From a virus (lineage: Duplodnaviria > Heunggongvirae > Uroviricota > Caudoviricetes), in the IMG/VR virus record IMGVR_UViG_2531839130_000014: 36,967 bases of DNA. One strand, written 5' to 3'. The translations under genes and the position numbers were made by a program. Numbering within the stretch: the stretch's first letter is position 1; the number at the start of each line of letters is the position of its first letter. The notes under the pieces are model-generated. The model worked only from the letters and a program-made list of their open reading frames with translations, ran no database searches and was not told the origin of the DNA. Below are positions 1 through 36,967 of the stretch, in pieces.

Positions 1-1236
1 CTACGATAGCCGCGCATTCAACATGGCTACCTGTTCGTCGTTCATGTCATCAATCCACATACCGTAAATTTCATACACCATCTGCGCAGTTTCATGTCCC
101 ATCTGGCTGGCTATAAATGCCGGGTTCGCTCCTGCCGTCAACAGCCAGCAGGCAAAAGTATGCCGCGTATGGTACGGATTACGGCGGCGAATACCAGCAC
201 GTTTTACTGCTGCATTCCACCTTGCCCCCAAACTGCTTACCGAGTAATAAGGTTTCTGTTTTCCGTTACACACCCTGGGCATGAAAACAAAATGCAGTTT
301 TTGCTTTTCGGTTCTGCCGTACTCCCGATGATAAAAGGTGATTTCGCTTTTGCGATGATGCCCGGTCAGTTTGTATTGCTCCTTCAGTGCTTCAAGAGCA
401 GGCTGCAGTAATGTTACCGTCCGGATCCCGGCATTTGTTTTTGGGGGACCGAACATATCCAGTATCGTCAGGTTTCTTCTGACATTCACAGTTCCCTTCT
501 CGAAATCCACATCCTCCCACGCCAGAGCTGCCAGTTCCCCGTGACGAAGCCCGGAGTAAACGGCAAATTTCCACAAGTTCTGGCTCTGTCCTTTTTCACT
601 TTCCATTAATGCATTGAATTCTGTTCTAGATAACGGATCTGGCTTTATTCTGTTTCGCTGTAATTTTTTTACTCCTTCAAATGGTTTGTTTGATATAAAT
701 CCCGACTGATAAGCAAAACGTAACAAAGAACAGAGCAGGGCGATATAGTTATCAACTGTGCGCACTGTTCTTCCTTTTTTGTTAGATCTTGGATTATCCA
801 GGTAAAGCGTTTCTCCATGCAACAGTTCATTCCGGTAATTTAAGATATCGCTATAACGAATATGTGATATCGGGGTACTTTCAGAAATTATTATCCTGAG
901 TGTTTTTAATTGTGATTTCGTTTTCTTCATTGTGTTTGTTGTTAACTCTGTCTCTTTAATTTTTGCCCAGATATCACAAAGCTCCCCGAATGTTTTTATG
1001 ACCCTCGTTGTCACCATTTTTGCCCCAGTGCTGGACTGGGGAAAACGTCTTAAATACTCGAATTCGCCGGAATTGATTTCGTGAACTATCAACGCTCTTA
1101 AATTCCCGGCTTTTTTAATATTACTGTTAGTAACCTCCCAGCCTTTCAATGTTTCCCGACATCGTTTTCCTCGAAACATGAACCAGATGCGAATGTATTT
1201 ACCCCGAATCTCGACACCTGTTGGTAATTTAGACAT
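1..1236 (-). CDS. intR: Phage tyrosine integrase, Rac prophage IntR-like; complete 411 aa, stop codon at window positions 1-3
   Basis: 411-aa ORF whose N-terminus MSKLPTGVEIRGKYIRIWFMFRGKRCRETLKGWE matches recalled Rac IntR. The C-terminal region has tyrosine recombinase features (R..HxxR..Y region: NPYHTRHTFACWLLTAGANPAFIASQMGHETAQMVYEIYG). Confidence 0.9.
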   Translation of the reverse strand: MSKLPTGVEIRGKYIRIWFMFRGKRCRETLKGWEVTNSNIKKAGNLRALIVHEINSGEFEYLRRFPQSSTGAKMVTTRVIKTFGELCDIWAKIKETELTTNTMKKTKSQLKTLRIIISESTPISHIRYSDILNYRNELLHGETLYLDNPRSNKKGRTVRTVDNYIALLCSLLRFAYQSGFISNKPFEGVKKLQRNRIKPDPLSRTEFNALMESEKGQSQNLWKFAVYSGLRHGELAALAWEDVDFEKGTVNVRRNLTILDMFGPPKTNAGIRTVTLLQPALEALKEQYKLTGHHRKSEITFYHREYGRTEKQKLHFVFMPRVCNGKQKPYYSVSSLGARWNAAVKRAGIRRRNPYHTRHTFACWLLTAGANPAFIASQMGHETAQMVYEIYGMWIDDMNDEQVAMLNARLS

Positions 1237-1991: not shown

Positions 1992-3044
1992 TCAGGAGCC
2001 GATATATTCTGGTTTCATATCTGTCAGTGTCGTTTTATACGCCTCATATAATTCTCCCAGATGTGGTCGTGCAGCATTCAGCGTATTTTCCAGAGCAGTA
2101 AATTTTTGTTCTGCTTCCGGATCACCTGATGAAGGCAGGTCATTTATCATCTTCTCAATACGGGCAATAGCATTGAGACGGTGATGACGCTGAACCACTT
2201 TTCCTTTAAGTTCCGTATAGAGAGCGCCAAGTGTATTTTTATGCTCTTCCACTTCCTGCCGAAGTGCTGTTGTTTCTTCGGTGCTTTGTGCCTGCTCAAT
2301 ACGTTCACGGAAAGCACTGATCCAGTTTTCCCCGGCATCCTGCTCAATAATTGTTGTTTCACGTTCCGTACGGCAGGCGGATGTGTTTTTATGTTCCTGA
2401 ACCGGATTAATGATTTTTTCCTGTGGTTCGTCCAGTTCGTCCCGGGTGTACACTCCAAGAATCACTTCAGGGCTATAAAGGCGCGCCCAGCGTTTCAGTG
2501 CCAGATAGGCAAGCTGCTGACGAGGATCATCGGCCCATAACGTTGAGTTACGTGTTCTGGCCTGCGCCAGAAGTAACTCCAGTATGCGTGGTTTGCTCTC
2601 TCCGCGTAGTGTTGCCTGGACGCGAACTCCGATCCCGTTTTCATCTGCCAGCTTCCAGCCAGGTACACGATATTCTTTCCCTTTGTCGTTCTTCCTGATT
2701 TCAAATTTCCCGATAATTTTTTCCCACGGCCCGAACCAGTCATATTCAATACGCCCGGTTAGCGGCCCACGAGTACTGATTACGGCATTAACCAGTTGCG
2801 CTTCATATCCGAGCACACCATTCACAACGAAAGTTTTCTGAGCTACTGCGTAAGGATTCATTTGCCACTGCATCGCCTGCATGGTGATGGCCATGCAGTC
2901 TGATGGATTTCCTCGGAGGTGTTCCGGTACAGTAGCCATGCCGGAAGCCATTACCTGAGAAAACGTCTGAATTGCAGCCAGAGACTGAGGGCTGAACACC
3001 GCAACATTAGAGTTAATATTTTCTTGTTGAGTTAATTCGTTCAT
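1992..3044 (-). CDS. Putative phage single-strand annealing protein (RecT/Red-beta superfamily), not the K-12 RecT allele
   Basis: 350-aa ORF directly downstream of the exonuclease gene on the same strand (recE-recT-type operon). Start at 3044 is preceded by GAGGAAGGA. The central region (NPYAVAQKTFVVNGVLGYEAQLVNAVI...) resembles the annealing-protein core; family assignment is by context and pattern, not a search. Confidence 0.5.
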   Translation of the reverse strand: MNELTQQENINSNVAVFSPQSLAAIQTFSQVMASGMATVPEHLRGNPSDCMAITMQAMQWQMNPYAVAQKTFVVNGVLGYEAQLVNAVISTRGPLTGRIEYDWFGPWEKIIGKFEIRKNDKGKEYRVPGWKLADENGIGVRVQATLRGESKPRILELLLAQARTRNSTLWADDPRQQLAYLALKRWARLYSPEVILGVYTRDELDEPQEKIINPVQEHKNTSACRTERETTIIEQDAGENWISAFRERIEQAQSTEETTALRQEVEEHKNTLGALYTELKGKVVQRHHRLNAIARIEKMINDLPSSGDPEAEQKFTALENTLNAARPHLGELYEAYKTTLTDMKPEYIGS

Positions 3045-3055
3045 TGTGTCCTTCC

Positions 3056-4728
3056 TCAGATGCTCAGTGCTTCAAGACGGCGAAGATCAAAGTCGTTTAA
3101 TTCGTCGGTATAACTTTCGGTAATCGGTGCTGGCCAGTTGTTTGTCTCCAGCGCTTCGTTTATCTGTCGTAGCGTCCGGCGATATTCCTGTCGACCAAGT
3201 TCCAGGAGTTCCTGCGAGGCTTCCACGACTGCCACCCAGTGATAGCCAGCATCTTTGTTGACGAAGATCCAGAAAAATTTGTCCAGGTTTGCCACATCGC
3301 AATACATTGCGGCGCTGAGGTGATAATCACGCTCAATAATTTCACGGTGCAGGCGATCTTTAAGTCGTTCCTGCCGCACATAACCGAGGCTGACTGACTT
3401 CACGTCAGCGCAAATGCTTTCGTATGGCAGCCGGATTTCGATATCAGGACGGACCCTAATTTCCAGCCCGGTTTCTTCATCAAACCCGAAATAGCTGATT
3501 TCAGATTTGCGATCCGGGTGGTTGAGTAGCCTTGCTGCATCGGTATTGTTTTGCAGTGCCGCGTGAATATTTTTTGCCTGTTCATACATATCCGGACTGA
3601 TAAACGTTTTCCCGGCGTTTTCTTCTTGCTGGCGTTTTTGCCAGTCCTCCAGTGTCACCAGGTCCGGGCGAATTTTCCGTGCGATTTCGGTTAATTGCTC
3701 TTTTGTGCCACTGATGTTGTAAGGCAAAGATTTAGCACGTTCTTTTTTTGCCAGTTCTGGGTCTACAGTTTCAATTTGATCCAGAAGCTGCTCCCGTGCT
3801 CCACTGGTTTTCAACAGAGGAGGGAGGCTTGCGTTGTATTCTTTAATACAGGCTTTCATTGCTGATGCTGTGTGTTTTTCCCCCTCAGGAATACGCCGAA
3901 ATTCCTCCGGAAGCGAACCGTAAAGGATGCCTGTTTCTTCGGCCCCAGCGCTTACCGACAGTGGCTGTATAAGAGTGCTGTTGTAGCTTTCGATCCACTC
4001 TTTCATCTGCTCTGGTGTCATCAGTGATGGCAGACTGGCATTATGTTTTTTAATGATGGTGATCAGTTCGTTAGAAGTAGTAACCACATATTCAGGAACC
4101 GGTACCGGAATGGCATATTCATCAGCGAATTTATCCGTTTCCAGAACATAGCTGTGAATGATCCGCCCACGCAGCAATGCATCACTTTCCTCGTTCGGGA
4201 TAGTTCCGGCAATGTGCCGCCCGTGGTAATACATCAGACTGATGCGGGCATCCTTCAGCATTGTGCTGCTTATTCCGTTGGCGGAGTGATAAACCTCGTT
4301 CGGGAGGTTTTCATAGCGACCAGGCTCGAAATATGACGGCCACATGATTTCAGTTGCTACATGAGCTGACGCTTCACCAGTTTCATCACTGCAATCGTGA
4401 TGCGGATGGTTGCCAGCGTTCTCCTTGTGCGGATGTTCAGCGCCTTCCATTTCCTCCGGATCTTTTTCCTGAGATTCATCCAGATTTTCTCCATCGAATG
4501 TTTCCTGGTATGTTGCGTCGCCCATCACCGCACCACAGTCAGGGCAGTTATCCCCGCCAGTCTGACCGCAGGCATTGCAGACTATTTCCGGTTCCCGTTG
4601 CACTACTGGCTCAGGTTGTTTCACATCCTGACTGGTTTTTTCCGTTTCTGGCTGGTTCTGGTTCACAGAATCGCGAGTCTGGATCCCCTTAAACCATTTC
4701 GGATCGTTCGGGTCGCTAATTCCGTCAA
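3056..4728 (-). pseudogene. RecE-like PD-(D/E)XK exonuclease (exodeoxyribonuclease VIII family), C-terminal 557 codons; 5' part apparently removed by the Mu-like insertion
   Basis: The frame is open from the stop at 3056 right up to the Mu-like end at 4729 with no ATG in the first ~70 flanking codons. The first four codons of the listed ORF (GTG start at 4741) are Mu-end sequence, and the next in-frame stop upstream lies inside Mu DNA (4775-4777). Nuclease-like motifs are present (EVYHSANGISSTMLKD, PDIEIR...ADVKS) plus a CxxC...CxxC cluster. Confidence 0.55.
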
Positions 4729-4900
4729 TGTATTGATTCACTTGAAGTACGAAAAAAACCGGGAGGACATTGGATTATTCGGGATTTGGCGGGATTAGAT
4801 TTAGTGGGGCTTGCAAGCCTGTAGGACAGATTTTAGCCGTTACATCTTGAAACGCGAAAGATTGTTGGAAACAGCTTTTGATTCATTAAAGACACGAAAA
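4729..4900. repeat. Mu-type left end (attL) with transposase-binding end sites (L1 at about 4733-4755; further consensus-like sites near 4826-4850 and 4879-4900)
   Basis: Matches to the MuA end-site consensus TGNTTCAYTNNAARYRCGAAAR: TGATTCACTTGAAGTACGAAAAA at the terminus and TGATTCATTAAAGACACGAAAA at 4879-4900. The 5 bp flanking the end (4724-4728, GTCAA) fit the Mu target consensus N-Y-S-R-N. Confidence 0.8.
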
Positions 4901-5067
4901 GCAATTACTTCACGCATCATTTCAAGTACAGCTTCAAAAATGCTTCAAAAACGGTAACAACCAGGCTTTCAGCAAGTGATGTGTGTCAAAAACAATCATC
5001 ACTGTTTGGGTATCTTACATATGTAATTGCCTGGAGTGAAGTTTATGTCTTAGCTATTACCTGGTTG

Positions 5068-5592
5068 TTATACAGCTTTCTTTACATCGTTTTCTCTTAC
5101 AGGGAAATTATGTTCTTTGCCTTCATACTGAGACAAAATCTCTCTCACTTTTTCCGGTGGTAATGCCTGAAGAGTTTGCAGGGTTTTCTGTTGCTCCACA
5201 GTAATCCCTAATGCCTCTAATGCCTTATCTTTACTGACAATTGTAGGCATAAGTCCTTTAATCCCTGCCACACGAATGATCTCCACAGCTGCGGCCTGCT
5301 CATCTGGTGTTAAGAAGCTCATTGCATAAATTAGCCTCTCATCAACTGTATGGGCGATTGATGTATGCACTGGTTTATCAGAAAGTGAGGCTCCTTTAAT
5401 GGCCCTGCGTGTTTCTTCTGGCAGACTGTTGATGTGATACTCATAAGCGACACCTTTCCCACCGTGACGCTGACGTTTTACCCAATCTTCCGCCACAGCT
5501 TTCCTGGTAATGTTAGTCGCCAACTTTGGTACACCAGGCATCCCTTCCAGCTCTTTCGCATTAAACCATTCTTTGATTTCAAAAGACATCAT
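5068..5592 (-). CDS. c: Mu-type lysogenic repressor (c / Repc-like)
   Basis: Leftward 174-aa ORF next to the left end. Its N-terminus ([60 protein letters not shown]) is clearly homologous to the N-terminus of the adjacent transposase ([59 protein letters not shown]), the known Mu repressor/MuA enhancer-binding relationship. Confidence 0.85.
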   Translation of the reverse strand: MMSFEIKEWFNAKELEGMPGVPKLATNITRKAVAEDWVKRQRHGGKGVAYEYHINSLPEETRRAIKGASLSDKPVHTSIAHTVDERLIYAMSFLTPDEQAAAVEIIRVAGIKGLMPTIVSKDKALEALGITVEQQKTLQTLQALPPEKVREILSQYEGKEHNFPVRENDVKKAV

Positions 5593-5777
5593 TTAAAATC
5601 CTAGTGATTTCAATAGAGACAAAATAAATTCATATAAAAATCATGCTGTTATATGAAATCATGGCAAATCCTTTCAAATCACTATTGATTTGAAAGTGAT
5701 TCCACACTACATTGCACGATATGCCGTGAGCTACTTTATAGCGTAGCTCGCGGGGGAATCTGAAAGGATTACATGAA
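5593..5777. promoter_or_regulatory. Divergent early control region: operators, Pe/Pc promoters and expected transpositional enhancer (IAS)
   Basis: 185-bp AT-rich spacer between divergent c and ner. Perfect 11-4-11 palindrome CTTTCAAATCA-CTAT-TGATTTGAAAG at 5671-5696; related half-sites TGATTTCAA at about 5602 and AATCCTTTCA / TGAAAGGATT at 5667 and 5762. It lies about 0.86-1.05 kb from the left end, as in Mu. Confidence 0.6.
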
Positions 5778-5999
5778 ATGCATATGAATAAAAGAACTAA
5801 CCGCCAAGATTGGCACAGAGCTGACATCGTTGCAGAGCTACGAAAACGCAATATGTCACTAGCTGAATTGGGAAGATCTAATCATCTTTCGTCTTCAACA
5901 TTAAAAAATGCTTTGGATAAGAGATATCCGAAAGCGGAGAAAATCATTGCAGATGCACTGGGAATGACACCGCAAGATATTTGGCCGTCTCGATACTAG
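5778..5999 (+). CDS. ner: Ner, DNA-binding negative regulator of early transcription
   Basis: 73-aa ORF with ...[23 protein letters not shown]...[24 protein letters not shown], matching the Ner family signature, immediately upstream of the transposase. Confidence 0.85.
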
Positions 6000-6006
6000 G
6001 TGCGCT

Positions 6007-7995
6007 ATGAAAGAATGGTATACAGCAAAAGAGTTGCTCGGTTTGGCAGGTTTACCAAAGCAAGCCACTAACATTACACGTAAGGCACAAAGAGAAGGCT
6101 GGGAGTTCAGACAGGTTGCAGGGACTAAAGGTGTATCATTTGAATTCAATATCAAATCATTCCCTGTCGCATTACGTGCTGAAATTCTGTTGCAACAAGG
6201 GAGAATTGAAACAAGCCTGGGCCGTTTTGAAATCGCCCGCCCCACGCTGGAAGCCCATGATTATGATCGTGAGGTGCTGTGGAGCAAATGGGATAAAGCC
6301 AGCGATTCCCAGCGCAGACTTGCTGAAAAATGGTTGCCTGCGGTTCAGGCTGCAGACGAAATGCTGAACCAGGGGATTTCAACGAAAACGGCTTTTGCGA
6401 CCGTTGCAGGGCATTACCAGGTCAGCGCATCCACTTTGCGGGACAAGTATTACCAGGTACAGAAGTTTGCGAAGCCTGACTGGGCGGCTGCACTTGTTGA
6501 TGGACGTGGTGCATCCCGTCGCAATGTTCACAAAAGTGAATTTGACGAGGATGCCTGGCAGTTTCTGATTGCAGATTATCTGCGACCGGAAAAACCCGCC
6601 TTCCGCAAATGTTATGAGCGTCTGGAACTGGCAGCCCGCGAGCATGGCTGGAGTATTCCCTCCCGTGCCACGGCCTTTCGCCGGATTCAGCAACTGGACG
6701 AGGCAATGGTTGTTGCCTGTCGTGAAGGTGAACATGCACTGATGCATCTGATACCGGCACAGCAGCGAACTGTGGAACACCTGGACGCCATGCAGTGGAT
6801 CAACGGCGACGGTTATCTGCATAACGTCTTTGTACGCTGGTTTAACGGTGATGTGATCCGCCCGAAAACATGGTTCTGGCAGGATGTGAAAACCCGAAAA
6901 ATTCTGGGCTGGCGCTGCGATGTGAGCGAGAACATTGATTCAATTCGCCTCTCGTTCATGGATGTTGTGACTCGCTACGGTATCCCGGAGGATTTTCACA
7001 TCACCATTGATAACACCCGTGGTGCTGCGAATAAATGGCTGACGGGAGGCGCGCCCAATCGCTACCGCTTTAAGGTGAAAGAAGACGATCCAAAGGGATT
7101 GTTTTTACTGATGGGTGCGAAAATGCACTGGACAAGCGTTGTTGCCGGTAAAGGCTGGGGCCAGGCAAAACCTGTTGAACGTGCTTTCGGTGTTGGTGGG
7201 CTTGAGGAATACGTTGATAAGCATCCGGCACTGGCTGGCGCATATACGGGGCCAAATCCGCAGGCAAAACCTGATAACTATGGCAACCGCGCTGTTGATG
7301 CAGAGCTGTTTCTGAAAAACCTTGCCGAAGGTGTGGCGATGTTCAATGCCAGAACAGGCCGTGAAACAGAAATGTGCGGGGGCAAACTCTCGTTTGATGA
7401 TGTTTTCGAGCGTGAATACGCCAGAACGATTGTGCGTAAGCCAACCGAAGAACAAAAACGGATGCTGTTACTGCCTGCCGAGGCGGTGAACGTTTCACGC
7501 AAAGGCGAGTTTACGCTTAAAGTTGGCGGCTCCCTTAAAGGCGCGAAAAACGTTTATTACAACATGGCATTAATGAATGCCGGCGTGAAAAAAGTTGTGG
7601 TCAGGTTTGATCCGCAGCAGCTACACAGCACGGTTTATTGTTACACCCTGGACGGTCGGTTTATCTGTGAAGCGGAATGTCTGGCACCTGTTGCGTTTAA
7701 TGATGCTGCGGCAGGCCGTGAATATCGCCGCCGCCAGAAACAACTGAAATCTGCGACGAAAGCAGCGATTAAGGCACAGAAACAAATGGATGCACTGGAA
7801 GTGGCAGAGCTGCTGCCGCAGATAGCCGAACCTGAAGCACCAGAATCACGAATTGTCGGCATTTTCCGGCCTTCCGGTAATACGGAACGGGTGAAGAATC
7901 AGGAGCGTGATGATGAATACGAAACTGAGCGTGATGAATATCTGAATCATTCGCTGGATATTCTGGAACAGAACAGACGTAAAAAAGCCATTTAA
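6007..7995 (+). CDS. A: MuA-type DDE transposase
   Basis: 662-aa ORF (Mu A is about 663 aa). It has the repressor-like N-terminal DNA-binding domain, a central catalytic region and a basic C-terminal tail, in the Mu position after ner. Confidence 0.93.
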
Positions 7996-8033
7996 TTAAC
8001 GTTTAAACAAAATTTAATTACGAGGTTATTCAG

Positions 8034-8972
8034 ATGAATATTTCCGATATTCGCGCAGGACTGCGCACGCTTGTAGAAAATGAAGAAACCACCTTTAAAC
8101 AAATTGCTCTTGAGAGCGGACTTTCTACCGGAACTATCAGTAGTTTTATCAATGATAAGTACAACGGGGATAACGAGCGTGTTTCACAAATGCTGCAACG
8201 CTGGCTGGAAAAATATCATGCAGTTGCAGAACTACCTGAACCGCCCCGCTTTGTGGAAACGCAGACGGTAAAACAAATCTGGACAAGTATGCGTTTTGCC
8301 AGCCTGACTGAAAGTATTGCTGTTGTATGTGGCAATCCTGGTGTGGGCAAAACCGAAGCGGCCCGTGAATATCGCCGCACCAATAACAATGTCTGGATGA
8401 TCACCATTACGCCATCCTGCGCCAGTGTTCTGGAATGTCTTACTGAACTGGCGTTTGAGCTGGGAATGAATGACGCACCACGCCGTAAAGGGCCACTTTC
8501 CCGTGCCCTGCGACGTCGCCTTGAAGGTACACAGGGGCTGGTTATCATCGACGAAGCTGATCATCTTGGTGCCGAAGTTCTGGAAGAACTCCGCCTGTTA
8601 CAGGAATCAACCCGCACTGGCCTTGTGCTGATGGGAAATCACCGGGTTTATTCAAATATGACGGGGGGTAACAGAACGGTTGAATTTGCCCGTCTGTTTT
8701 CCCGTATTGCAAAGCGCACTGCAATTAATAAAACAAAAAAAGCCGATGTAAAAGCTATTGCGGATGCCTGGCAGATTAACGGCGAAAATGAACTGGAGTT
8801 ATTACAGCAGATTGCGCAGAAACCAGGTGCGCTTCGCATTCTGAATCATTCACTTCGCCTTGCCGCCATGACGGCTCACGGTAAAGGTGAGCGTGTTAAC
8901 GAAGATTATCTGCGTCAGGCTTTCCGTGAATTAGACCTGGACGTTGATATTTCAACGCTGCTGCGTAATTAA
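8034..8972 (+). CDS. B: MuB-type AAA+ ATPase, transposition target-DNA activator
   Basis: 312-aa ORF with Walker A GNPGVGKTEA and Walker B-like LVIIDEADHL. N-terminus MNISDIRAGLRTLVENEETTFKQIALESGLSTG matches recalled Mu B. Confidence 0.9.
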   Translation: MNISDIRAGLRTLVENEETTFKQIALESGLSTGTISSFINDKYNGDNERVSQMLQRWLEKYHAVAELPEPPRFVETQTVKQIWTSMRFASLTESIAVVCGNPGVGKTEAAREYRRTNNNVWMITITPSCASVLECLTELAFELGMNDAPRRKGPLSRALRRRLEGTQGLVIIDEADHLGAEVLEELRLLQESTRTGLVLMGNHRVYSNMTGGNRTVEFARLFSRIAKRTAINKTKKADVKAIADAWQINGENELELLQQIAQKPGALRILNHSLRLAAMTAHGKGERVNEDYLRQAFRELDLDVDISTLLRN

Positions 8973-8987
8973 GAAGGAGAAGAAATT

Positions 8988-9215
8988 ATGATGGCCCGAA
9001 ATATAAAAATGGCAACGGATGCGCAGAACTGGTTACAGGCGCGCGGGAGTCATGTAAATGAATCATATCTCGGCGTGGCGCGTCCGATTCTTGAAATCAC
9101 TTACCCACCGGTGGAACTGGTAAAAAACGCGGTCAGGATTATGGAGCATAAGTCCGGGGTGGCCCGTTCTGTATGGACGGCCCGTCTTAATGGTTGTCAG
9201 ATTATCTGGAGATAA
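8988..9215 (+). CDS. Small early protein in the kil position (Kil-like by synteny only)
   Basis: 75-aa ORF directly after B with AAGGAGAAG upstream. Mu encodes the 74-aa Kil at this position; no sequence-level recognition. Confidence 0.35.
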
Positions 9216-11111: not shown

Positions 11112-11651
11112 ATGGTTGATGCAAAAATTCTGAATGGTGTCAGCACATTATTACGGGCTTACGGACGCCTGACCTGCGGGGTTCTGGCTGAAAAAATGCA
11201 GATGCCACCCTCCGCAATGGTGTATTTCCTGCGTGATGCGGTTGATGCCGGAGTGCTCACCGAATGCAACGGATTTTATGACGTTCCGCGCCCGCGTCAG
11301 ACGCCGCCGGTAAGACGAAACGCAACTGAGCAGCCTGCTGTTGATGATGCGGTGTGGTGCAACTGGCGTCGCTCATTACCCTGGGTGGAAGGTAATACCA
11401 TCCCCGCACTGGCAAAAGAGTTTGCGACAGGCGTACTGACCTGTGAGTCCGTTCACATCGTTGCAGAAGTGGATGACGAGATGTGCAAACAGGGAATGCC
11501 CCGTTTTGTGATGGCTTATATCGATATCCGGCTGGGGCGGTTTATTTGCAGTTCCAGCGCCTGGAATATCACCGACCATGTACTGCGTTATCTCATCATT
11601 GATTTTTCATCAGCACCGGGTGTGGTGCAGGAGGCTGGTTGTGAAATTTGA
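11112..11651 (+). CDS. Hypothetical early protein
   Basis: 179-aa ORF with GAGGAATAAAAC upstream; no recognisable domain. Confidence 0.45.
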   Translation: MVDAKILNGVSTLLRAYGRLTCGVLAEKMQMPPSAMVYFLRDAVDAGVLTECNGFYDVPRPRQTPPVRRNATEQPAVDDAVWCNWRRSLPWVEGNTIPALAKEFATGVLTCESVHIVAEVDDEMCKQGMPRFVMAYIDIRLGRFICSSSAWNITDHVLRYLIIDFSSAPGVVQEAGCEI

Positions 11652-12336
11652 AGACTGGGGTATTGATAAAAGTTGTGGCCGGGACGTCCTGGTGTACAAA
11701 AACTGTAGCGTGATTGAAGGAGAAGATGCCTGGCAGGTTCTGGATATACTTCGTTCTGCTTTATGCAGAGCTGGCTATGTTACGCCAGCGTCAGTTAATG
11801 GCGGAACTGCCACTACCTGTATCAGAAAGCAACTTTATAGTTTTTATACAGCCTACAACCGATGGTTAAAGAATGGGGCAATGGAGACGGGCGATGATGT
11901 ATTTACCCGGGCTGCCGGATTATGTGCCAATGCTTACGATTATTTTGAATCAACCGGTGCAGACAGTGAAGCCGCATTAGAACAATTACATGCGGACTTT
12001 ATCTCAGCAGGGCTGAATGAGAAATTGCCATTTAACCGGGACAGCAAACATTACAGAAACGAAAGCAAATTGGCCAGATGCCACCTGAATTCAGCACGTG
12101 TGGCATGGGTTGAAAAACACTGTATTAGTTCTGATTCAGAAATAACGGGGAAAAAGACAGTCGGTGAAAATTCGTATTCGTGGCTGGGGACATTCACCAC
12201 GGTGAAACAGGAATGCCCGACCTGCGGTAATGAAAACCCTGAATATCTGAAAGAGTGCCCTCATTGTGGTGGGCAGAAATGCAACCACTGCGATATGGGC
12301 GATGACACGGCGTGCATGAATTGTGAAGGTGAGTGA
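11641..12336 (+). CDS. Hypothetical early protein with C-terminal zinc-ribbon-like Cys cluster (start uncertain)
   Basis: Long ORF (listed from 11578) ending CPTCGNENPEYLKECPHCGGQKCNHCDMGDDTACMNCEGE. A GTG at 11641 overlapping the upstream stop is a plausible start. Confidence 0.4.
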   Translation: MKFEDWGIDKSCGRDVLVYKNCSVIEGEDAWQVLDILRSALCRAGYVTPASVNGGTATTCIRKQLYSFYTAYNRWLKNGAMETGDDVFTRAAGLCANAYDYFESTGADSEAALEQLHADFISAGLNEKLPFNRDSKHYRNESKLARCHLNSARVAWVEKHCISSDSEITGKKTVGENSYSWLGTFTTVKQECPTCGNENPEYLKECPHCGGQKCNHCDMGDDTACMNCEGE

Positions 12337-12337
12337 T

Positions 12338-12649
12338 ATGAATAATGGTGTATTTTCAAAATCAGAAGAGCTTGCCGCCCTGCTGATTGCCGGTGGTTTG
12401 CCGAAAAAAGAAGTGCATGACTTTGTGAATTTTGTATATGAGCCGTCTCATGAAAAAGCTATTGATGAAGTCATGGCGTACCGGTTTGGCATTATTGCTG
12501 AGTCACTGAGTCCTCACTGGATTATTGAAAATCTCCGCACTATTGCTGATGGTAACGATAAAGTGGCGGCTGTCGCCGCCCTTGATGTGCTGCAACGTAT
12601 GAACCGGGAACTATTCAATCCCGAGTTTCTTTTTAAGAAACGAGGTTAA
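12338..12649 (+). CDS. Hypothetical early protein
   Basis: About 103-aa ORF; the ATG at 12338 overlaps the upstream stop region. Confidence 0.45.
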   Translation: MNNGVFSKSEELAALLIAGGLPKKEVHDFVNFVYEPSHEKAIDEVMAYRFGIIAESLSPHWIIENLRTIADGNDKVAAVAALDVLQRMNRELFNPEFLFKKRG

Positions 12650-13027
12650 CCACTGTTTGCCGACGTCTGTTACGAGCGTCATCGGGGCGTCGGCAAGGTC
12701 CTGTTTTATGCGCTCAAGAATGGGTTTTTGATGTAGTGCTTTCGCAAAATCATGACCATCTTGTGTAAGTCTGACACTGGTGCCTGAATATGAATATCCG
12801 AGGCTTGTTGGGGTGAGACCAATGCTTTTTGCGGTGCCTGTTTCCAGATATCTGTTGCTGATAAAACCATTTTCAACCAGCAACAGAAGATGGAAAACCA
12901 GCTTCTGATGGCTGTCGCTGTGCCGCTGAGAACGCTCCCAGCCGACATCTTCCAGTCGAATGAATGCGGTGTCGGCCTCCAGAAAAACATCAAATATTCT
13001 GGCTATCTCGTCATAATCAATTTTCAT
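12611..13027 (-). CDS. Hypothetical protein encoded antisense to the early operon (possible DUF2513-like; candidate moron)
   Basis: 138-aa minus-strand ORF with balanced, globular-looking composition (MKIDYDEIARIFDVFLEADTAFIRLEDVGW...). AAGGA lies about 8 nt upstream of its ATG on the minus strand. Its start is 30 bp from the gemA start and its 3' end overlaps the upstream plus-strand gene convergently. Confidence 0.5.
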   Translation of the reverse strand: MKIDYDEIARIFDVFLEADTAFIRLEDVGWERSQRHSDSHQKLVFHLLLLVENGFISNRYLETGTAKSIGLTPTSLGYSYSGTSVRLTQDGHDFAKALHQKPILERIKQDLADAPMTLVTDVGKQWLTSFLKKKLGIE

Positions 13028-13057
13028 ATCTCATTCCTTAATATGAGAGGTGAGCAA

Positions 13058-14072: not shown

Positions 14073-14291
14073 ATGGGTAAAGGCTGGAATGCATCCTTTC
14101 ATCTTGGCAGACGTGAGCGGCTGCGTCAGGAGGTTTTGCGCCGTGTCGCCGGTGGGCCACGTCCTGCGCCCCGCGACTATACCGGTCATGATGGCACCCA
14201 CGGCAGTTATTACATGAAAGGCTGGCAGTCAGTTGATATGCCGGAAATTCTTCATCATTGCCTGCTTTACAGGGAGAAACATTATGTCTGA
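14073..14291 (+). CDS. Hypothetical middle-operon protein
   Basis: 72-aa ORF between mor and C. Confidence 0.4.
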   Translation: MGKGWNASFHLGRRERLRQEVLRRVAGGPRPAPRDYTGHDGTHGSYYMKGWQSVDMPEILHHCLLYREKHYV

Positions 14292-14646
14292 GCGTTCTGC
14301 TCGTCAGTGGCCTGATTTTTTATCGGTGGTATTACTGGCGCTGTTATTGTGGATAAGTCTGTTTTGTGGCTGGCGCGCGCTGATGTTTTGCTGTGCCTCG
14401 GTTTTCAGTGTTGCTTTATGTGTTGCCGGTGATTATCTGGATGCGCTGATAATGAGCTGCCGGGTGCCTGAACATTTTGCCCGGTTCGTCTGGCCTCTGA
14501 CCTGGCTGGGGGGGCTGTCCGGGCTGGGATTAGCCGTGATGGCAACGTCTCAACTGAAAACGGGTCCTGAGTATGTCATCTGGGCGCTGGCCGGATTGCT
14601 GACGTTCTGGCTCTCCTTTCGTTTTCGCGCTCGTCTGTTCGGGTAA
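14284..14646 (+). CDS. Hypothetical multi-pass membrane protein (middle operon)
   Basis: ATG at 14284 preceded by AGGGAG. Several hydrophobic helices (LSVVLLALLLWISLFCGW, VFSVALCVAG, WPLTWLGGLSGLGLAVMA, VIWALAGLLTFWLSF). Confidence 0.5.
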   Translation: MSERSARQWPDFLSVVLLALLLWISLFCGWRALMFCCASVFSVALCVAGDYLDALIMSCRVPEHFARFVWPLTWLGGLSGLGLAVMATSQLKTGPEYVIWALAGLLTFWLSFRFRARLFG

Positions 14647-14655
14647 AGGGGCACC

Positions 14656-14775
14656 ATGTACAGAAAATTCAGTGATGAATGTTTCGGGCCGTCCACGCTG
14701 ATTAATGCGATAAAAGTGATTGCCCTTGTGGTTCTGATAACCATCAGTGCCGTGGTGTATCTTTTTGTCTGTTAA
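14656..14775 (+). CDS. Possible 39-aa small membrane protein
   Basis: Short ORF MYRKFSDECFGPSTLINAIKVIALVVLITISAVVYLFVC with one hydrophobic helix, below the ORF-track size cutoff; found by reading the frame. Confidence 0.3.
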   Translation: MYRKFSDECFGPSTLINAIKVIALVVLITISAVVYLFVC

Positions 14776-14787
14776 CCGGGGGAAAAT

Positions 14788-15210
14788 ATGCAGCATGATT
14801 TATTTGAACACGATCCGGCAATTCGCCAGTTAATCGGGCATATTGATAACATCCCGGCCCCGGAACTGGAATCACGCTGGCCCCGTTCAGTGGTTGATCT
14901 GATTGATATTCTGGAAAACGAACTGAAACGCCAGAACGTCAGCAATCCCCGTGAGCTTGCCCGTAAACAGGCCGTTGCCCTGTCCTGTTTTCTGGGCGGG
15001 CGGCAGTTTTACATCCCCTGCGGCGATACGATCCTGACCGCGTTACGCGACGATTTGCTTTACTGCCAGTTCAATGGTCGTAACATGGAAGAACTGCGTC
15101 GCCAGTATCGCCTGTCCCAGCCGCAGATCTACCAGATTATTGCCCGCCAGAGAAAGCTGCATACACGACGTCATCAGCCTGATCTGTTCTCACCTGAAAG
15201 CCCAAAATAA
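14788..15210 (+). CDS. C: C, late-gene transcriptional activator (Mor/C family)
   Basis: 140-aa ORF (Mu C is 140 aa), paralogous to Mor, located before the lysis and morphogenesis genes. Confidence 0.85.
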   Translation: MQHDLFEHDPAIRQLIGHIDNIPAPELESRWPRSVVDLIDILENELKRQNVSNPRELARKQAVALSCFLGGRQFYIPCGDTILTALRDDLLYCQFNGRNMEELRRQYRLSQPQIYQIIARQRKLHTRRHQPDLFSPESPK

Positions 15211-36326: not shown

Positions 36327-36967
36327 TGTTTTATATTGATAACGACAGCGGCGTAACCGTCATGCCGCCCGTATCCGCCCAGCGTAGTGCTATCGTTCGC
36401 TGGTTTTCAGAAGGTGACGGGAATAATGCTATCACATGGCCCGGCATGGACTGGTTTAATATTGTGCAGGCGGAGTTATTAAACACGCTGAAAGAAGCCG
36501 GTATTCAACCGGATAAAACAAAATTAAACCAGCTTGCACTGTCCATTAAAGCCATTATGAGCAATAACGCGCTGCTGATAAAAAATAACCTCAGCGAAAT
36601 TAAAATTGCCGGGGCATCAGCACAGCGTACAGCACGTGAAAATCTGGATATCTGGGATGCCAGCCTGAACAAAAAAGGCCTCGTTCAGCTAACCAGTGCC
36701 ACTGACAGCCCCAGTGAAACGCTGGCAGCCACCGCAAAAGCGGTGAAAATTGCGATGGATAATGCCAATGCCCGTCTGGCAAAAGACCGGAACGGAGCAG
36801 ATATTCCCAATAAGCCGCTGTTTATCCAAAACCTTGGTTTACAGGAAACGGTAAATCAGGCTTCTGGCGCATTACAGAAAAACCAGAACGGCGCAGATAT
36901 TCCGGGAAAAGATACCTTCACCAAAAATATTGGTGCCTGCCGCGCATATAGCGCATGGCTGAATATT
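36326..36967 (+). CDS. Tail fibre protein, N-terminal part (partial; runs off the window end)
   Basis: ATG at 36326 with the frame open to the last base (read by hand). Contains repeated fibre-type motifs (KDRNGADIPNKPLFIQNLGL and KNQNGADIPGKDTFTKNIG). Confidence 0.65.
   Translation, partial: MFYIDNDSGVTVMPPVSAQRSAIVRWFSEGDGNNAITWPGMDWFNIVQAELLNTLKEAGIQPDKTKLNQLALSIKAIMSNNALLIKNNLSEIKIAGASAQRTARENLDIWDASLNKKGLVQLTSATDSPSETLAATAKAVKIAMDNANARLAKDRNGADIPNKPLFIQNLGLQETVNQASGALQKNQNGADIPGKDTFTKNIGACRAYSAWLNI

Follow-up and report, generated by a model that had tools for sequence, protein, structure and literature searches.

Insertion of a D108-type transposable prophage into recE of the Rac prophage in Escherichia coli

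The Rac prophage and the left junction

The window, i.e. the whole stretch of 36,967 nucleotides that was analysed, starts at the stop codon of intR, which encodes the Rac integrase of 411 amino acids (1..1236, minus strand; Pfam Phage_integrase). On the same strand lie a gene for a RecT-family recombinase of 350 amino acids (1992..3044; Pfam PF03837 RecT) and, directly upstream of it, a 3’ fragment of recE (3056..4728). This fragment consists of 556 codons plus the stop codon, is 97.3% identical to annotated recE and encodes the PD-(D/E)XK nuclease domain (PF12684), with a weak match to the RecE nuclease structure 3H4R. Read leftwards from recE, the order is recT-family, ralR, DUF1187, xisR and intR, followed on the source contig by ttcA and dbpA. 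This gene arrangement is the same as that of Rac in strain EC11 and thus the host element is Rac itself. The 5’ fragment of recE is on a second contig (described below), where a RacC-like gene, kilR and a DicA/RacR-like repressor gene come after it. An earlier reading of this DNA (the sequence-only reading) had called the host a Rac-like prophage: a prophage it is, but not merely a similar one, as it is Rac at its usual site beside ttcA. Both this site and the order intR, xisR, DUF1187, ralR, recT, recE, racC-like, kilR, repressor are shared with the Rac recET region of E. coli; the differences are that recE is interrupted here and that the RecT-family gene has 350 codons. K-12 RecT is a protein of 269 amino acids, relative to which the 350-codon protein is a divergent or extended recombinase. 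Despite its Pfam RecT match, the gene at 1992-3044 has no NCBIfam match at E <= 1e-5; in strain EC11, a gene of equal length at the corresponding position is annotated as “RecT family recombinase”.

At position 4729, recE gives way to phage DNA. From there onward the window reads TGTATTGATTCACTTGAAGTACGAAAAAAACC..., and alignment shows base 4729 to be nucleotide 1 of both D108 (Muvirus mu; GQ357916) and Mu (AF083977), exactly where a Mu left end had previously been placed. The phage left end (attL; 4729..5067, plus strand) is identical to that of D108 at 231 of 232 bases, and its first 54 nucleotides are the same in the window, D108 and Mu. It contains the cores of the L1, L2 and L3 transposase-binding sites (4744-4755, 4849-4860 and 4889-4900), at positions equivalent to those of the sites annotated in D108. 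The description of this end as near-canonical Mu was correct as to its Mu type, but it is not that of Mu proper: the first 360 nucleotides are only 79.6% identical to Mu, whereas the left 6,906 bp, including attL, c, ner, A and B, are 98.3% identical to D108. “D108-type” is therefore the more exact term.

On the other side of the junction, a megablast search with positions 3056-5400 found recE in 4,320 of 5,426 complete E. coli genomes. In all matches listed, recE, at up to 97.3% identity, ends at query base 1673, which is window position 4728, and none of the 5,426 genomes spans the 4728/4729 junction. Two independent searches thus break at the same base, which is not what a chance resemblance would give. 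A minus-strand open reading frame of 561 codons (3056-4741) runs across the junction; its sole start is a GTG at 4741, 13 nucleotides inside phage DNA, and the nearest in-frame stop upstream also lies within phage DNA. This agrees with the sequence-only reading, in which a RecE-like frame was open up to the junction and met a stop only inside the phage. The translation places the first in-frame ATG of the recE 3’ fragment at flanking codon 68, with none in the first 67, in keeping with the stretch of about 70 flanking codons previously said to lack one. The pentamer GTCAA abutting the phage (4724..4728) does match the Mu target consensus N-Y-S-R-N, as had been pointed out, but so would one in eight random pentamers and, by itself, this fit is weak evidence for insertion. 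The strong evidence is the duplication of GTCAA at the opposite end of the phage, of which the pentamer at 4724..4728 is the left copy.

The reciprocal junction and the rejoined recE gene

The last part of the window (36822..36967, plus strand) takes in the left inverted repeat of the invertible segment G together with 64 nucleotides from the start of G; because the window stops inside this segment, the right end of the phage lies outside it. The canonical Mu right-end 18-mer was not found in this phage lineage and a variant right end was therefore sought, using a degenerate pattern for the reciprocal junction. This pattern was derived from intact recE, which carries a single GTCAA, reading ...TTCCGTCAACAAATTC..., and it allowed either phage end and synonymous changes in the flank. 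It matched one IMG/VR contig, UViG_2531839130_000007 (45,691 bp, hereafter L015). On L015, GTCAA comes directly after the phage end ...GAGCCGGCTCA, and the 5’ part of recE comes next, the junction being ...CATGAGCCGGCTCA GTCAA CAAATTCACC...; written also as ...CTTTTCATGAGCCGGCTCA GTCAA CAAATTCACCACGTGATGCAGC..., the same junction has recE continuing after GTCAA. The phage ends in ...TCA at L015 4767, the second GTCAA occupies L015 4768-4772, and cores of the R-end transposase-binding sites are found at L015 4701, 4719 and 4741, so that the phage has TG...CA termini with transposase-binding sites at both ends. The recE 5’ fragment is an open reading frame of 485 codons ending ...AASRGEFVD, and it is closed by TGA, the terminal TCA of the phage in reverse complement. 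Thus, the second GTCAA and the 5’ part of recE that the sequence-only reading had proposed to look for beyond the right end are both seen. A left-junction 33-mer was not found in IMG/VR, and two matches to the predicted right junction in species-representative genomes, both in unrelated MAGs, were set aside as chance. At the start of L015, positions 1-231 are a reverse-complement copy of the gin-side flank and the G inverted repeat; such a palindrome is an assembly artefact to which invertible segments typically give rise, and it has no biological meaning.

We then removed the phage and one copy of GTCAA, i.e. we joined window 3056-4728 to L015 4773-6222. The rejoined recE is 3,123 nucleotides long and forms a single frame of 1,040 codons without internal stop. 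Aligned to annotated intact recE, the joined flanks are colinear and equal in length, matching in one piece (3,123 nucleotides each) with 100% coverage and 96.2-96.6% identity in the genomes listed; 88 complete genomes have a place covering at least 80% of the rejoined gene. On the NCBIfam equivalog NF007259 (exodeoxyribonuclease VIII; 877 positions, cut-off 1269 bits), the rejoined protein passes with 1336.5 bits over positions 1-874, while both fragments fall below the cut-off, the 5’ fragment with 733.7 bits over positions 1-479 and the 3’ fragment with 587.4 bits over positions 479-874. The earlier proposal of a transposition into the coding region of a recE-like gene is hence borne out by the 1,040-codon recE that the flanks restore. 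Homologues naturally starting near 4728 were also looked for and there were none, the homologues found reaching 468-485 codons further upstream. Compared with Rac of other strains, the recE gene described here is distinguished by its 1,040 codons and mosaic N-terminal region; the intact recE of EC11 has 1,023 codons (3,072 bp) and that of K-12 has 866.

The mosaic structure of RecE is apparent from the pairing of the N-terminal domain PF06630 with differing C-terminal modules (PF12684, PF16473 and others). The N-terminal region occurs in versions of 468 and 485 residues (on contig L001 at 7669-9072 and on L015 at 4768-6222, respectively), and the phage is inserted within a few codons of the point at which the mosaic breaks. 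The databases contain many “partial” RecE fragments of 457-502 amino acids ending at this break point; such fragments are common because the gene is mosaic there. A homologue search with the 468-residue N-terminus of EC11 RecE did not return the expected fragment among its cluster representatives. When nine candidate exact 468-residue RecE prefixes were looked up, two were found to exist, P0121 (EFL7020968.1) and P0135 (HHW3400869.1), which share their last residue (...GEFVD) with the fragment from the insertion described here. Both are labelled “partial” and belong to a different recE allele; they may be truncations at a contig end or insertions at this same position, and they were given no weight.

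Exact-sequence look-up assigned both halves of the gene to one strain. The 485-residue RecE fragment is recorded for E. coli P0299917.1 as ENA08738.1 and ENC35949.1, the longest contig listed for it having 45,691 bp, as does L015, and the 561-residue product of the window’s open reading frame is recorded for the same strain as ENA09706.1 and ENC35334.1. The pairing of the accessions (ENA08738 with ENA09706, ENC35949 with ENC35334) indicates two sibling isolates, each with both halves. The source contig APYJ01000143.1 and the window disagree at 3 of 11,074 nucleotides, and the contig ends 110 nucleotides earlier; since the two are not identical, the window comes from a sibling assembly. The two junctions are on different contigs and the G segment between them, at which the draft assemblies break, is spanned by no read or contig. 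The last 146 nucleotides of the window match L015 150-295 at 145 positions, the one mismatch being inside the G inverted repeat, and the window end also matches L015 3141-3222 in inverted orientation. From the 146-nucleotide overlap and the shared strain name, we infer that the two contigs are physically continuous across G.

The composite phage and its relatives

Window positions 4729-36967 and 4,472 bp on the second contig together make up a composite phage of 36,711 bp which, judged by its sequence, is a complete D108/Mu-type transposable prophage of about 36.7 kb. When 54 D108 proteins were searched against it, 47 had matches covering >97% of their length, while gp13 and gp38 were covered to 92-93%; gin and mom were matched in part, and gp12, gp14 and com had no match. 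The repressor gene c (5068..5592, minus strand) is of D108 type and encodes a protein of 174 amino acids, 98.9% identical to that of D108 (Pfam HTH_Tnp_Mu_1). It is followed on the plus strand by ner and the genes for transposase A (662 amino acids) and target activator B (312 amino acids) (5778..8972), which tblastn matched to D108 over their full length at 98.9-100% identity; A (98.9%) and B (100%) carry the Pfam domains DDE_2, Mu-transpos_C and Phage-MuB_C. From 13058 to 36821, gemA, mor, C and the lysis, head, tail and baseplate genes, up to the constant part of the tail-fibre gene S, are colinear with D108/Mu on the plus strand, with 96.6-96.8% identity by blastn over 23.8 kb and D108 proteins matched at full length.

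The phage is nearest to D108, with 97.5% identity over 95% of 23 kb, starting at D108 base 1, and at its right end it also has the D108-specific gene 56 (88.5% amino-acid identity). The right end, which terminates ...GAGCCGGCTCA, is however only 87% identical to that of D108. Further differences are that G is in the orientation opposite to that of the D108 reference, that one tail-fibre variable part is divergent, that gin-com-mom carries a deletion and that the early region at 11635-13057 is replaced. In the latter, an accessory region unlike D108 or Mu takes the place of gp12 and gp14, and only 183 nucleotides align by blastn. Its open reading frames (11578-12336 and 12323-12649 on the plus strand, 12611-13027 on the minus strand, i.e. 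opposite to the early operon) have matches to PHROGs 6418, 1988 and 585 alone, all of unknown function, and none has a Pfam or PADLOC match. With Mu, the phage shares genome size, gene order, TG...CA ends, the L and R transposase-binding sites and a 5-bp target duplication fitting N-Y-S-R-N, as well as the lack of site specificity, its relatives being found at many loci. In contrast to Mu, com and mom are lost, and, past the first 360 nucleotides of the phage, nothing aligns from 361 to 1466: because the immunity region is of D108 type, Mu aligns only from about 1.5 kb inwards.

In gin-com-mom, about 652 bp are deleted: com is gone entirely, gin has lost its 3’ end and mom its 5’ part. What is left is residues 1-161 of the 197 of gin, with positions 1-25 of the 45 of the HTH_7 profile, and residues 103-245 only of mom; gin, its HTH domain cut short, is thereby fused to the interior of mom. 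The fused region is at L015 3277-4136 and is also present on contigs L002, L003, L004, L006 and L007 at about 14166-15100. The G segment and its inverted repeats are present, and near-identical prophages carry G in both orientations. Inversion therefore probably continues in this lineage, via the truncated Gin or via an invertase acting in trans.

Relatives at other chromosomal sites (contigs L002-L008) have right ends of two kinds, either the canonical ...CGTGCGCCGCTTCA, which is accompanied by com and mom, or the variant ...CATGAGCCGGCTCA. Prophages at two further loci, in other strains (L004 and L006), are 100.000% identical to the last 11,184 nucleotides of the window, and the right arm is 99.96-99.98% identical over 4.6 kb to L003, L004 and L006. 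The loci concerned are L004 16212-20543 and L006 16000-16806. That on L004 adjoins the lom and tail-fibre genes of a lambdoid prophage and is hence a second case of a prophage within a prophage; another 100.000%-identical copy adjoins the gene for RNase I. Landing in another prophage is thus not unusual for this lineage, which, from the presence of near-identical copies at other sites, appears to have been active recently.

Transposition into recE and its consequences

We are highly confident that MuA/MuB transposition placed a D108/Mu-type phage in codon 485 of the 1,040-codon recE of Rac, in P0299917.1 and a sibling isolate. The structure is seen directly; the mechanism we infer from established Mu biology. 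The MuA transpososome would join the 3’ ends of the phage to target cuts staggered by 5 bp, and repair of the 5-bp gaps by the host would produce the GTCAA duplication. recE is split into a 5’ fragment of 485 amino acids and a 3’ fragment without start codon or promoter, with the nuclease domain intact, and the 3’ fragment and recT are severed from the Rac early promoter. As recET of Rac is normally repressed and silent, the cost of the insertion to the cell would probably be small.

Might the junction at 4728/4729 be an assembly chimera instead, in which a Rac contig was misjoined to a Mu-type prophage from elsewhere? The assemblies concerned are short-read drafts that break in G, and the start of L015 itself is a palindromic artefact involving the inverted repeat of G. 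But the same 561-residue junction open reading frame is found on four contigs, recE and the phage end have no repeat in common that could drive a misjoin, the join falls exactly at the first base of the phage, and the reciprocal junction with its 5-bp duplication is present on another contig of the same strain, all of which makes a chimera exceedingly improbable. We give just as little credence to a recE-like gene that is naturally short, starting near 4728 and merely abutting the prophage. Its C-terminal part alone does hold the nuclease domain, and shorter “partial” RecE proteins are numerous in the databases, but these entries are labelled as partial and are mostly on short contigs. Moreover, all close homologues in complete genomes run upstream through 4728, the fragment covers positions 479-874 of NF007259 with 587 bits against a cut-off of 1269, and the open reading frame has its only start inside phage DNA, the first 67 codons of the flank being free of ATG.

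A different scenario accepts the insertion but adds a subsequent Mu-mediated rearrangement, an adjacent deletion or inversion, after which the two flanks would no longer be the halves of one target. Mu replication generates precisely such events, and the continuity across G is deduced rather than spanned. The flanks, however, rejoin perfectly with a 5-bp duplication. A simple insertion leaves this signature, and an adjacent deletion or inversion would have erased it; we therefore regard this scenario as very improbable. Simple insertion by transposition into recE is thus the reading that we retain.

Whether the insertion could activate what remains of recET is a separate matter. The repressor gene c (5592 to 5068, minus strand) points toward the left end of the phage and the recE fragment, c is transcribed in lysogens, and no intrinsic terminator-like site was found on the minus strand between the stop codon of c and the recE fragment. 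A c transcript reading out of the phage might then express RecT together with an N-terminally truncated RecE containing the whole nuclease domain. Against this, no Shine-Dalgarno sequence or good ribosome-binding site can be read before the GTG at 4741, the first ATG is 68 codons into the recE flank, and the transcript would be likely to undergo Rho-dependent termination in attL, which is untranslated. We consider activation by read-out to be very unlikely. In classical K-12 genetics, sbcA mutations and Tn5 insertions in Rac switch on recE. The present case is similar in that transcription leading out of an element that lies upstream of the nuclease domain could enter recE-recT, and it differs in that the insertion is inside the coding region. 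Should read-out occur, it would be a natural counterpart of the sbcA activation of the RecET recombination pathway.

The insertion is an ordinary outcome of Mu biology and a fresh instance of a well-known process; a literature search for Mu-in-Rac or for named “nested prophage” cases returned nothing specific. Its value is mainly one of annotation, in that ENA09706.1 and ENA08738.1, recorded as “hypothetical” or “exodeoxyribonuclease VIII family”, are the halves of one recE, and in that a “phage region” of about 60 kb is two nested elements and not one. It opens no long-standing question. It provides a clean natural example of a transposable phage that landed in a silent cryptic prophage, and the lineage thereby documented is D108-like, without com and mom and with a truncated gin, and has apparently been mobile recently in E. 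coli.
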